Source: Chloroflexota bacterium
GTDB taxonomy: Bacteria; Chloroflexota; Dehalococcoidia; Dehalococcoidales; JAZDNC01
DNA length: 55,313 nt
Assembly: GCA_043800335.1 (NCBI GenBank)
Contig: JAZDNC010000037.1
Span: 1-55,313, forward strand
Reading direction: 5' to 3'
Positions 51,309-54,698 of this stretch are shown one piece after another (within the stretch, counting starts at the first letter, position 1; every line of letters starts with the position of its first letter). Position numbers and translations under genes: made by a program. The notes beneath the pieces are model-generated. The model saw nothing but the letters and a program-made list of their open reading frames with translations. It had not been told where the DNA came from and made no database searches.

Positions 51309-51340
51309 GGATGAGCCGAGACTCCTCGGCTCATCCTGTT
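51309..51340. terminator. Hairpin between the convergent TPP-enzyme and cysS genes
   Basis: GGATGAGCCGAG-ACTC-CTCGGCTCATCC perfect stem. Confidence 0.7.
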
Positions 51341-51395: not shown

Positions 51396-52754
51396 CTACT
51401 TCTGTTTCCAGACACTTCCCTTCGGCGTATCCTCAAGAATAATGCCCAGCTCGCCCAGTCGCTTGCGGATGTTGTCGGCAAGCTGGTACTCCTTAGCCTG
51501 ACGTAGCTCGTTACGTAGAGCGATAAGAAGCTCAATAAAGGGCGCTGCTTCGGTAGTCTTCTCTCTCGTCTTAAACGTAAGACCCATCACTCCCGCCAGT
51601 TCTACAAGCATCTCTCTGGCAGAAGTCGTCTTAAATCCTTCATCCCTCAGGCGGTTAATGTCGCGGGTAAGCTCAAAGAGTATCGCCACCCCCTGGGCGG
51701 TATTAAAATCGTCATCCATGACAGTCAAGAATCTCTCGCGATAGACGGCGAGGTCTACATTTGGAGCTTTACCCTCGCCATCCTCGCCGTGAACTGCCTG
51801 GCGCAGTCTTTCGGCACCCCTCTCCGCCGCCTCAAGGGCGTCCTCGGCGTAGGTGAGGGGACTGCGGTAGTGGGAGCTCAGGACGAAGATACGCAGGGCA
51901 TCGGGGCTGTATTTCTTGAGTATGCCGCTGATGGTTATGATATTGCCCAGGGACTTGCTCATTTTCTCACTGCCGAACTGGAGTAAGCCGTTGTGCATCC
52001 AGTAGCGGACAAAGGGCTTTTTGCCGGTGTAACTCTCGGACTGGGCAATCTCATTTTCATGATGGGGGAAGATGAGGTCCTGCCCGCCGCCGTGAATATC
52101 TATCTGCTCACCGAGATAGCGGAGCGACATGGCACTGCATTCAATATGCCAGCCGGGGCGTCCCTTACCCCAGGGACTTTCCCATGACGGCTCGCCGGGT
52201 TTCGCCGCCTTCCAGAGGGCAAAGTCCATCGGGTGCTCTTTCCCTTCCTCCGGCTCGACCCGGGCACCCGCCATCATGGCATCAAGAGTGCGGTGGGAAA
52301 GCCTGCCGTAGTCAGCGACCTTGAGCACCCGGAAGTAAACACTGCCCTGGACGGGGTAGGCATAGCCCTTTTCAATTAGACCCTGGATTACCTCAATAAT
52401 CTTGTTTATCTCCCCAGTGGCGTAGGGATAGACATCGGCGGGGGTGATGTTGAGCGCTGCCATATCTTCAAGGTAGCTCTGGGTAAACCTTTTCGCCAGC
52501 TCTTCAGCGGGGATGCCCAGCTCTCGCGCCCGGTTGATGATTTTGTCATCAATATCGGTGAAGTTCTGGACATATGTTACCCGGTAACCGCGGTACTTAA
52601 GATAGCGACGGATGACATCAAAGATGATGTAGCTCATGGCGTGCCCGATGTGGGCGTGGTCGTAGGGAGTCACCCCGCAGACGTACATCCTGACCTCGCT
52701 ACCCCGGGGTAGAAACTCCTCTTTCTCGCCCGACTCGGTGTTATAGATTTTCAT
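51396..52754 (-). CDS. cysS: Cysteine--tRNA ligase
   Basis: [36 protein letters not shown]. Confidence 0.97.
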
Positions 52755-53386
52755 GGCTTACCTTTCTGGTCAATGAGTTTCTCAAGCGCGGCGATTCTCG
52801 TCTCCAGATTTTCCAGTCTTTCTCCCACCGGGTCAGGCAGGTTTTCTACAGTGTCGGTGTCCGGGTTGCGGATTGCCACCACCCTTCCTGGCACGCCGAC
52901 CACCGTGGCGTCAGGCGGCACCGAGCTGACCACCACCGAGCCCGCACCCACTTTGGAATTATCGCCGATGGTGATAGCGCCGATGAGCTTGGCGCCGGCG
53001 CCGACCACAACATTGTTACCCAGAGTGGGGTGGCGCTTGACTCTCTGCATGCTCGTGCCACCCAGGGTTACCCCCTGGTAGAGAACAACATTGTCCCCGA
53101 TTTCGGCGGTCTCGCCGATGACGACCCCCATCCCGTGGTCGATAAAGAAGCCCTCGCCAATCTTAGCCCCGGGGTGTATCTCGATACCGGTCAGAGAGCG
53201 GCTCAGGTTGGAGATAAGACGGGGCAGCAGCGGAATATGCCAGAGAAGCAGACGGTGGGCGAGGCGGTGGAACTGACGGGCGTGAAAGCCGGGGTAGGCA
53301 AGCCAGACCTCGAGCCTATTCACGGCGGCGGGGTCATTGGCAAGAACCGCTTTGACATCTCTGTTAATACTGCTGATTAGTGACAT
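52751..53386 (-). CDS. cysE: Serine O-acetyltransferase
   Basis: [42 protein letters not shown]. Confidence 0.95.
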
Positions 53387-53405
53387 TTAAATCTCCTTTC
53401 CCGAA

Positions 53406-53507
53406 TTAAGTGAGGTGGCATGCCCCGGTTAGCCCGGGGCGCTTACAGATGCACCGCCAGCCTCGGGGAAAGGAGTCCTCTATCTGCCGGATAGTTTCAG
53501 GGTTCAT
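53406..53507 (-). CDS. Putative 33-aa Cys-containing leader peptide upstream of cysE
   Basis: MNPETIRQIEDSFPRGWRCICKRPGLTGACHLT*; ATG overlaps the ispF stop (ATGA); contains an anti-SD complementary to the cysE RBS. Confidence 0.55.
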   Translation of the reverse strand: MNPETIRQIEDSFPRGWRCICKRPGLTGACHLT

Positions 53508-54004
53508 GGTCGTAAACGCAAGGGTCGCTTCGGGGTATTCTCAATCGAGGCAATGGCATAGACAGCGATTGCCTCCCCTTTCGGCGCAATGCCCAGACCG
53601 TTAGAGCTGTGTGCCTTGATGCTCACCAATGCCACCGGTATGCCAAGTGTCTGAGCCAGAGTCTTTCTTATCTCCCCGGTAAAATCACTAAGTCTCGGTT
53701 CATCCGCTAGAACGGTGGCATCAATGTTATTTATCCGCCACCCACCCGCGAGTAGCTCGGCAACTGTCTTCGACAGCAGGGTGAGGCTTGAGATACCCCG
53801 GTAGGCTTTGTCACCAGCGGGGAAGTGACTGCCAATGTCGCCCAGCGCCGCCGCCCCGAGAAGGGCGTCGATAACGGCATGGGTAAGCACGTCACCGTCA
53901 CTCCAGCCCTCCAGTCCAGACCCAAATGGTATGTCCACCCCACCCAGCATCAGTTTTCTGCCGGCGACCAGGGGATGAATGTCGTAGCCGATGCCGAAGC
54001 GCAT
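53504..54004 (-). CDS. ispF: 2-C-methyl-D-erythritol 2,4-cyclodiphosphate synthase
   Basis: MRFGIGYDIH, SDGDVLTHAVIDALLGA, DIGSHFP. Confidence 0.95.
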   Translation of the reverse strand: MRFGIGYDIHPLVAGRKLMLGGVDIPFGSGLEGWSDGDVLTHAVIDALLGAAALGDIGSHFPAGDKAYRGISSLTLLSKTVAELLAGGWRINNIDATVLADEPRLSDFTGEIRKTLAQTLGIPVALVSIKAHSSNGLGIAPKGEAIAVYAIASIENTPKRPLRLRP

Positions 54005-54005
54005 T

Positions 54006-54698
54006 CTATCTCTTCTCCGAACGCCTCCGGAAAAGGGCTTCCGCCAGAAACAGGTCAAGGGGCGTCGTTATCTTGATGTTATCATAGGCACCGGGATACA
54101 GCTTTACCGGGTAGCCCAATTTTTCCACCAGCGAGGCATCATCGGTGACCTCATCTTTCACCTCGCGGTAAGCTCTCTGGATAAGGTCAAAACGAAAGAC
54201 CTGCGGCGTCTGTACCGCCCAGAGCTCGTGGCGGGGCGGTGTCACCCTGACCAGCATATCGTCCCCGGCGGACTTGATGGTGTCGGTTGCCGGCACGGCG
54301 GCGACCGCCGCTCCCGTTTCCCTAGCAGCATCCAGTCCCTCTCGGATAAGTTCTTGAGTCACCAGCGGGCGGGCCCCGTCATGGATGACCACCCACTCAC
54401 ACTCGGTGAGCTTATTGAGGCCAATCTTAACCGAGTCCTGCCGGCGGCGACCGCCCAGATAAACGCCCTTTACCTTGGCGAAGCTCTGTCCTTTAACCAG
54501 ACTCCGCCCCAAGCTCAGGTTCTTGCGGGCTAGCACGATGACAATCTCATCTATCAGCTCAGAGGAATTAAAGACGTCAATCACCCGGGCTAAGATGAGC
54601 TTACCCGCCAGGGGCACCAGAATCTTGTCTACCCCCTCCATCCGCTGGCTCTCCCCGGCGGCGGCGATAACAGCACCGACTCTGCCTGACCTAATCAT
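54006..54698 (-). CDS. ispD: 2-C-methyl-D-erythritol 4-phosphate cytidylyltransferase
   Basis: AAGESQRM, GGRRRQDSV, IHDGARP, QTPQVF, TDDAS, NIKITT. Confidence 0.95.
   Translation of the reverse strand: MIRSGRVGAVIAAAGESQRMEGVDKILVPLAGKLILARVIDVFNSSELIDEIVIVLARKNLSLGRSLVKGQSFAKVKGVYLGGRRRQDSVKIGLNKLTECEWVVIHDGARPLVTQELIREGLDAARETGAAVAAVPATDTIKSAGDDMLVRVTPPRHELWAVQTPQVFRFDLIQRAYREVKDEVTDDASLVEKLGYPVKLYPGAYDNIKITTPLDLFLAEALFRRRSEKR

Follow-up and report, generated by a model that had tools for sequence, protein, structure and literature searches.

A conserved Cys-X-Cys leader open reading frame before cysE-cysS in Dehalococcoidales, a probable translational attenuator sensing charged tRNA-Cys

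The gap of 117 nucleotides (nt) between ispF and cysE in a member of the Dehalococcoidales (Chloroflexota; Dehalococcoidia) holds a compact element of about 95 nt that is probably a ribosome-mediated translational attenuator, sensing charged cysteine transfer RNA (tRNA-Cys). It lies on the minus strand of the window, by which is meant the whole stretch of 55,313 nt that was analysed (contig JAZDNC010000037.1 of assembly GCA_043800335.1), and it combines a leader, or upstream, open reading frame (uORF) bearing a closely spaced pair of cysteine codons, Cys1 and Cys2 of a Cys-X-Cys motif, with a long hairpin in which the Shine-Dalgarno (SD) sequence of cysE is paired. The same anatomy recurs in relatives, where the helices covary, the frame and its start are kept, and the element is tied to the genes of cysteine supply. 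Its parts, all of which can be placed to the nucleotide, are these:

53406..53507, minus strand: leader open reading frame (uORF) of 33 codons plus stop, MNPETIRQIEDSFPRGWRCICKRPGLTGACHLT, from the list of open reading frames
53445..53453, minus strand: sensor codons Cys-Ile-Cys (UGC AUC UGU), from the sequence and conserved in relatives
53466..53475, minus strand: anti-SD, the 5' arm of helix P1, CUCCUUUCCC, from RNAfold and compensatory changes in relatives
53393..53402, minus strand: SD region of cysE, the 3' arm of P1, GGGAAAGGAG, from RNAfold
53455..53464, minus strand: 5' arm of helix P2, GAGG-C-UGGCG, from RNAfold
53412..53420, minus strand: 3' arm of P2, UGCCA-CCUC, from RNAfold
53422..53440, minus strand: hairpin P3, GCCCCGG-GCUAA-CCGGGGC, pairing 53440-53434 with 53428-53422, from RNAfold

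RNAfold draws the whole gap as one long imperfect hairpin, P1-P2-P3, with P3 at its apex (free energy -49.7 kcal/mol; z = -2.81; none of 200 shuffled sequences folding as well). P1 joins 53475-53466 to 53402-53393 in 10 base pairs (bp) of anti-SD with SD, the cysE GGAG included; P2 joins 53464-53455 to 53420-53412 in 9 bp with one bulge; and P3 begins 4-5 nt 3' of the second Cys codon. An earlier note, made from the letters of the sequence, had proposed just such a sequestration of the cysE SD, and folding agrees with it. The segments there named as complementary, CTCCTTTCCCCGA at 53475-53463 and TCGGGAAAGGAG at 53404-53393, were located, and every coordinate given for the uORF, the Cys codons, and the anti-SD and SD segments is correct; the spacing needs revision, in that the anti-SD ends 12 nt before Cys1 and not 9, the smaller figure coming from the longer arm drawn in that note. 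The uORF ATG (53507-53505) overlaps the ispF TGA (53506-53504) as ATGA. All three Cys codons that had been reported for the uORF are present in the window, the third being a TGC at 53420-53418 within the 3' arm of P2; this third codon is not conserved in relatives. Given that Cys accounts for 1.06% of codons in the same genome, arithmetic from that figure would give a random frame of 33 codons a chance of about 0.35% of containing a Cys-X-Cys, and since the arrangement also recurs in relatives, a chance origin is unlikely.

The starting set for comparison came from a CysE search of 41 related genomes and comprised 16 loci with CysE 67-82% identical to that of the window, 13 of which have the same element before cysE. 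In three relatives (L011, L014 and L016, with CysE 71-78% identical) ispF and cysE are separated by 4 nt, overlap, or are separated by 50 nt, and the element is absent; some lineages of the order must therefore have lost it or never acquired it. A covariance model, R1, built from the 13 copies has one real match in the window's own genome, its sole other match there having an expect value (E) of 0.8. Among 151 genomes sampled from the order it matches 35, in 22 of 90 genera and with one copy per genome; in a class sample of 151 genomes, mostly of other orders, it matches the window's own genome only. The copies analysed number 31, from 30 genomes, after the order-level matches in G149, G116, G111 and G082, a duplicate in G013 and a reverse-strand match in G064 were left out. 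All 31 lie directly upstream of cysE, with Cys1 67-76 nt before the cysE start; ispF is seen upstream in 27, the other four ending at a contig edge; and the Cys-X-Cys is invariant (31 of 31). Several individual copies merit mention. Genome G001 (L010), which figured in the initial inspection of loci only, has the module, but with about 85 nt inserted ahead of the SD. In many relatives (for example L036, L039 and L040) the anti-SD reads UGC-UUU-CCC, Cys-Phe-Pro, in the uORF frame, and these relatives thus have a third Cys codon 6-7 codons before the Cys-X-Cys, at a place where the window has UCC. One further contig, L073 of G367, belongs to a record titled as a Sphingomonadaceae metagenome-assembled genome (MAG); it nevertheless encodes a CysE with 71% identity to that of the window, and the genome collection assigns the genome to the same phylum as the window, so that either the label is probably wrong or the contig misbinned.

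Both outer helices covary. The structure examined was written by hand from single-sequence folds and applied to an unfitted MAFFT alignment, in which 84% of cells are paired, 11 of the 22 pairs show compensatory changes, and none of 500 shuffles does as well; sliding the partners by 1-3 columns brings pairing down to 35-56%. A 32-row alignment fitted to the model, which is biased in favour of the structure, shows covariation in 15 of the 22 pairs. Compensatory changes are found in 6 of 8 pairs of P1 and, for P2, in 4 of 7 pairs of the MAFFT alignment and 7 of 7 of the model-fitted one. P3, almost invariant in sequence, has 94.6% of its cells paired and two covarying pairs in the fitted alignment. 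RNAalifold alone returned P1 and P3 from the first MAFFT alignment and P3 only from the model-fitted one; because it missed P2 in both, P2 was judged with the hand-written structure, which favours that helix somewhat. The distance from P1 to Cys1 is itself conserved, at 11 nt in the alignment (12 nt by the window fold). The proposal in the earlier note depended on uORF, Cys codons and a covarying anti-SD/SD pairing being kept in relatives, and all three are.

The leader is likewise distinguished as a reading frame, and of the new findings this is the strongest. Between the ispF stop and Cys1, the 27 sequences that could be compared contain 7 stops in the Cys frame as against 39 and 97 in the other two, and all seven fall before the uORF start. 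The Cys frame is free of stops over this interval in 22 of 27 sequences (3 and 1 in the other frames), has an in-frame ATG in 22 of 27 (2 and 8), and is open from an ATG or GTG through the Cys-X-Cys in all 27 (3 and 0). A start lies 15-21 codons before Cys1 in each of the 30 evaluable copies (24 ATG, 6 GTG), and in 26 of 27 it falls 0-21 nt from the ispF stop, with ATGA, GTGA or TGATG overlaps in four. The uORF is 23-48 codons long in 29 of the 30 copies from relatives, the thirtieth being that of L041. Its N-terminal part is loosely alike among them (M-F-x-Y-V-[VI]-x-x-I), and the middle codon of the Cys-X-Cys varies at all three positions, as ATC, GTC, GCC, GTT, ACC, ATT or TCG. A conserved frame of some 30 codons that gene callers miss can thus be annotated from comparative data alone.

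The genes around the element run on the minus strand in the order ispD, ispF, the 117-nt gap, cysE and cysS, followed by a terminator-like hairpin:

54698..54006, minus strand: ispD, NCBIfam match above its curated cut-off
53504..54004, minus strand: ispF (2-C-methyl-D-erythritol 2,4-cyclodiphosphate synthase), TIGR00151, 162.9 bits against a cut-off of 116.45; the start at 54004 is approximate, being set from the homology match
52751..53386, minus strand: cysE (serine O-acetyltransferase), the regulated gene, with its ATG at 53386, TIGR01172, 234 bits against a cut-off of 210.65
51396..52754, minus strand: cysS (cysteine--tRNA ligase), TIGR00435, 536 bits against a cut-off of 340
51309..51336, minus strand: terminator-like hairpin 3' of cysS with a 12-bp stem, a pattern match only from a consensus scan and the probable end of the operon

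The cysS start overlaps the cysE stop by 4 nt (52751-52754), and for this reason cysS is probably co-regulated with cysE through translational coupling. ispD and ispF are also found upstream in Bacillus. A consensus scan, which is a weak test, found no promoter-like site on the minus strand, and the same scan found no terminator-like site between ispF and cysE. After P3 comes AUGCCACCUC in the window and, in relatives, a purine-rich linker, and the gap shows no terminator hairpin with a U run alternating with an antiterminator, the arrangement of a classical transcription attenuator of the trp/his type. Elsewhere in the same genome, cysK (C35:6970-7860) has no Cys uORF of the leader kind upstream. 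One metatranscriptome contained 5% of sampled words and, at 90% likeness, yielded two short contigs, fragments of a relative 90-95% alike to the window, of which one covers part of cysE and the other the 5' end of cysS; they do not bear on expression of the locus.

In light of this anatomy, the leader most likely serves to raise cysteine synthesis and the charging of tRNA-Cys when the charged form is short. cysE and cysS would be read from an ispD-ispF-cysE-cysS message whose default fold, P1-P2-P3, pairs the anti-SD with the cysE SD, such that few 30S subunits would start on cysE. Ribosomes ending ispF would restart on the overlapping uORF (ATGA). With Cys-tRNA plentiful, they would pass the Cys-X-Cys and terminate, and the hairpin would re-form. 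With Cys-tRNA scarce, a ribosome would wait with Cys1 in its A site, its footprint taking in all of the P2 5' arm as well as the greater part of the anti-SD and thereby leaving the SD single-stranded; cysE would then be translated, and cysS would follow by coupling through the 4-nt overlap. P3 is probably a nucleator of the fold or an enhancer of the pause at the messenger RNA (mRNA) entrance. The direction of the effect, from stalling to a free SD to more CysE and CysS, is inferred from the functions of the two genes and from the mycobacterial precedent considered below.

Ribosome-footprint models are consistent with this scheme. The ribosome was represented as bases forced to be unpaired over 15 nt to either side of the first P-site base, and the energy needed to open the ribosome-binding site (RBS) was computed over cysE positions -18 to +5, with these medians over the 31 copies and these values for the window:

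Free RNA: median 14.7 kcal/mol; window 14.5 kcal/mol
Cys1 in the A site: median 7.3 kcal/mol; window 6.0 kcal/mol
Cys2 in the A site: median 10.5 kcal/mol; window 14.6 kcal/mol
Ribosome eight codons after Cys1: median 13.2 kcal/mol; window 14.6 kcal/mol
Ribosome six codons before Cys1, on the anti-SD: median 8.3 kcal/mol; window 4.9 kcal/mol

The median probability that the SD is unpaired rises in these models from 0.04 in free RNA to 0.48 with a ribosome at Cys1. Judged by the opening energies at successive positions, Cys1 would be about the last codon at which a waiting ribosome keeps the anti-SD unpaired, which fits the conserved 11-nt distance from P1. With Cys2 in the A site, the first pair of P3 lies about 12 nt from the first P-site base, that is, near the mRNA entrance of the ribosome.

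More distant Chloroflexota have related leaders. At their cysE loci an ATG-started uORF ends in or near a Cys cluster and is followed by a GC hairpin and the SD; the clusters read CCACTCA or CCACL, each ending directly at the stop, or CAC, CRCVC, CVC and CAC, and some include 3-4 Cys codons. A phylum sample of 60 cysE upstream regions was drawn from those genomes, 221 of 401, in which CysE had been matched, a tally that includes the unpublished G476 and G328, on which no other result rests. TGY-NNN-TGY occurs upstream of cysE in 31 of the 60 on the coding strand as against 12 on the reverse strand, and when an in-frame start and a stop no more than 3 codons further on are also required, 10 and 0 remain. 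A phylum-wide module can be recognized among L143-L202 and L206-L219 (alignment A4), consisting of UGY-NNN-UGU, a 5-nt spacer, and a hairpin GGGGYGYC...GRCRCCCC. Fifteen sequences align readily; UAG, as the stop, often closes the spacer, and covariation is seen in 5 of the 8 pairs of the hairpin. The Dehalococcoidales type shares the 5-nt spacer and has a hairpin of opposite polarity (CCCC..GGGG as against GGGG..CCCC). Throughout the phylum the second Cys codon is almost always UGU, and distant members use TGT or TGC as the first. A model of the Cys-X-Cys and hairpin only, R2, which includes neither SD nor cysE, matches 13 of 151 phylum genomes at 14 places. Twelve of these lie 83-170 nt upstream of cysE, three of them in genomes from which the model was trained. 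Another lies directly between ispF and cysS (L217, 1488-1566, of genome G391, in which cysE is on another contig), where a uORF encoding MISALRCACP before its stop begins at the ispF stop. Since a model without SD or cysE finds both cysE and cysS, the module follows cysteine genes and not a particular SD. One weak R2 match (E = 0.0019) was rejected as chance, falling inside a repeat of a polyketide-synthase-like ORF. In one genus of family f119 (L213-L216 and L218) the module stands 144-161 nt before cysE with a second GC hairpin between.

A broader interpretation of the module, tentative when its several parts are taken together, is that the Chloroflexota possess an ancient and portable sensor of a 'hairpin-timed hungry-codon' kind, made up of the Cys-X-Cys, the 5-nt spacer and the stable GC hairpin. 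The hairpin would meet the mRNA entrance just as the wobble-read UGU enters the A site, slowing the ribosome, and a pair of codons might then respond to Cys-tRNA with the sharpness that classical leaders obtain from long codon runs. The module would have moved between cysE and cysS and acquired different output platforms, much as a riboswitch aptamer may be combined with one expression platform or another: Dehalococcoidales and some other Chloroflexota would sequester the SD, and the output would be another one where the models show no SD release.

Several observations must be set against attenuation by a ribosome waiting at the Cys codons. Within the models, a pause at Cys2 does little, and the SD unpaired probability of the window itself hardly moves, from 0.20 to 0.22, because weak local pairings replace P1. 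By this measure, with 12-nt and 15-nt 5' footprints, release is partial overall and absent in the window, where the effect is seen in the opening energy only; the claim in the earlier note that a stalled ribosome frees the cysE RBS is consequently supported by the opening energies with a pause at Cys1 and not by the window's unpaired probabilities. For L213-L216 and L218 the footprint models show no SD release, and that f119 genus may use another output platform, such as termination. The sequences compared share kinship, and counts drawn from them overstate independence. Across the uORF there is no excess of variation at third codon positions (codon-position entropy), from which it follows that the peptide itself is not under selection and that its translation is inferred from frame and start. 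The wobble bases are nevertheless fixed, Cys1 being TGC in 30 of 31 copies and Cys2 TGT in all 31; the genome as a whole mixes TGC and TGT at 2155:1365 (61:39), so that this fixation goes beyond coding need and pure amino-acid selection does not explain it. The distance from Cys1 to the uORF stop ranges between 4 and 31 codons. Five copies have this stop 4-5 nt short of the cysE ATG, where ribosomes completing the uORF would pass over the SD and could begin again on cysE, and the uORF of L041 (genome G061) lacks a stop and continues in frame through cysE; finished translation of the uORF may for these reasons itself feed cysE, and in L041 ribosomes past the Cys-X-Cys would yield an N-terminally extended CysE. 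A separate observation concerns L002 and L039, near-identical copies on two contigs of MAG G021, in which Cys1 is TGT and TGC respectively, the only synonymous change at either Cys codon seen in the order. Selection, by these comparisons, is on the frame, on the start and on a pair of Cys codons each in one particular spelling, and not on the peptide.

Given that wobble bases and spacer are fixed, the main rival has to be kept alive, although it is unlikely: the element may be read as RNA and not by a ribosome, as a site for a protein, a small molecule or tRNA-Cys, for example by the tRNA-Cys anticodon GCA pairing with UGC in the manner of a minimal T-box, with binding stabilising or opening the SD-sequestering helix and the open frame being secondary. 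Free variation of the middle codon between invariant neighbours, the near-invariant second UGU and constant spacer across the phylum, the lack of a third-position signature in the uORF, and the fact that many residues after the Cys-X-Cys merely translate the hairpin would all be at home in such an element. An RNA of this kind does not, however, account for the Cys frame alone being kept open and carrying an in-frame start, nor for distant members that add in-frame Cys codons and use either TGT or TGC first, and the opposite hairpin polarity of the two subfamilies argues against sequence-specific recognition. At about 95 nt the element is too small for the known T-box architecture. The remark in the earlier note that no T-box motif is visible holds up in an Rfam scan of window positions 53200-53800, which gave no T-box at E <= 10 and, as its best match, sroD on the opposite strand (E = 1.8); ten related Chloroflexota loci gave no T-box at E <= 0.1 and nothing relevant, though T-boxes were found as positive controls before cysE in two Firmicutes loci with similar CysE (93.1 and 93.9 bits).

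Quite unlikely, too, is a device for translational coupling that senses no cysteine, in which ribosomes arriving on the uORF from ispF unwind the hairpin, tie cysE-cysS output to upstream translation, and make the Cys codons incidental. Almost every copy has its uORF start adjoining or overlapping the ispF stop, the near-ATG stops and the one uORF-cysE fusion would suit such coupling, and a ribosome anywhere on the anti-SD lowers the opening energy of the RBS in the models, as the value for six codons before Cys1 illustrates. The device leaves unexplained why the Cys-X-Cys is invariant in 31 copies, why distant copies add Cys codons, and why the link is exclusively to cysE and cysS; moreover, with the stop 4-17 codons after Cys1 in 21 of 31 copies, most terminating ribosomes would never reach the SD. 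A functional small protein lying by chance between ispF and cysE, such as a metal- or redox-active CxC peptide, is very unlikely, for in spite of the conserved start, the CxC motif and the loosely similar N-terminal part, anything from 1 to 28 residues follow the CxC, the C-terminal residues follow the hairpin sequence, no synonymous excess and no protein family match (NCBIfam search at cut-off) were found, and the conserved pairing with the cysE SD would go unexplained.

Attenuation through charged tRNA-Cys also has relatives in principle among known systems. The earlier note mentioned Cys-rich leader ORFs in actinobacteria, and these are indeed on record: leaderless polycysteine short open reading frames (sORFs) of mycobacteria, such as Ms5788A and, before cysK1-cysE, Rv2334A, were shown to be cysteine-responsive attenuators in which a stalled ribosome prevents the formation of structures that would mask the RBS downstream (Canestrari et al. 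2020, 10.1101/834739). Common to both are a short ORF with Cys codons before cysteine genes, an RBS-sequestering duplex and action at the translational level, and in the mechanism proposed here, as modelled, a ribosome stalled for Cys-tRNA would likewise block the duplex. The mycobacterial sORFs, as that account presents them, are leaderless first genes whose C-terminal Cys run itself pairs with the SD region, whereas the Chloroflexota element is intercistronic, with its uORF ATG overlapping the ispF stop and therefore not leaderless, and has only a Cys-X-Cys pair and no run, an anti-SD set apart on the upstream side by about 11 nt, and a GC hairpin that follows at a constant 5 nt, in a different phylum. 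It is analogous to the polycysteine sORFs and not homologous to them or a member of their family; no sequence similarity was sought or seen. The uORFC-8-2 motif, predicted before cysS in Rhodobacterales (Brewer et al. 2021, RNA Biol 18:2417, PMC8632094), shares a conserved uORF, two Cys codons in a stem, a place before the cysteine-tRNA gene and a predicted stalling, both cases being predictions only. As described there, its codons are a tandem Cys-Cys at positions 14-15 and it ends in an intrinsic terminator with a U run, and it is for that reason held to act on transcription; the Chloroflexota element has no terminator and sequesters the SD.

Comparison may be extended to two other kinds of leader. 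In ermC and cat, the stalling of a ribosome on a leader ORF rearranges the hairpin in which the downstream SD is concealed, as is proposed here. The stall in those leaders is brought about by a drug acting on a specific nascent peptide and not by a hungry codon, and the sequence of the leader peptide matters. The Chloroflexota uORF, unlike these, shows no conserved arrest peptide of the ermCL, SecM or TnaC kind, being poorly conserved outside the Cys-X-Cys and the residues that the helices dictate. Translational attenuation of ermC and cat is named in the mycobacterial study (10.1101/834739). The Firmicutes Cys T-box (RF00230) serves the same genes, cysE-cysS, and the same signal, uncharged versus charged tRNA-Cys, and differs from the attenuator proposed here in binding the tRNA directly and needing no translation.

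What is new is the layout, placed inside an operon, fed by ribosomes leaving ispF, and built of two sensor codons with a hairpin at a fixed distance; the principle itself is known. The expectation in the earlier note that no such element had been described for Chloroflexota agrees with the literature searched, which contained no description for Chloroflexi or Dehalococcoidia and did not extend to the supplements of Canestrari 2020 and Brewer 2021, where more motifs could be listed; it is to be qualified in that the kind is already described in mycobacteria and predicted for cysS of Rhodobacterales. If the interpretation is true, this would be the first amino-acid-sensing leader ORF described for the Chloroflexota, a phylum known mostly from metagenomes and made up of organisms that are hard to grow, and it would explain how cysE and cysS are tuned there without a T-box. 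Together with the cases in mycobacteria and Rhodobacterales, it points to a repeated origin of Cys-codon leaders as a general solution. More broadly, the element would offer a compact system for asking how few hungry codons suffice and what a downstream hairpin adds.

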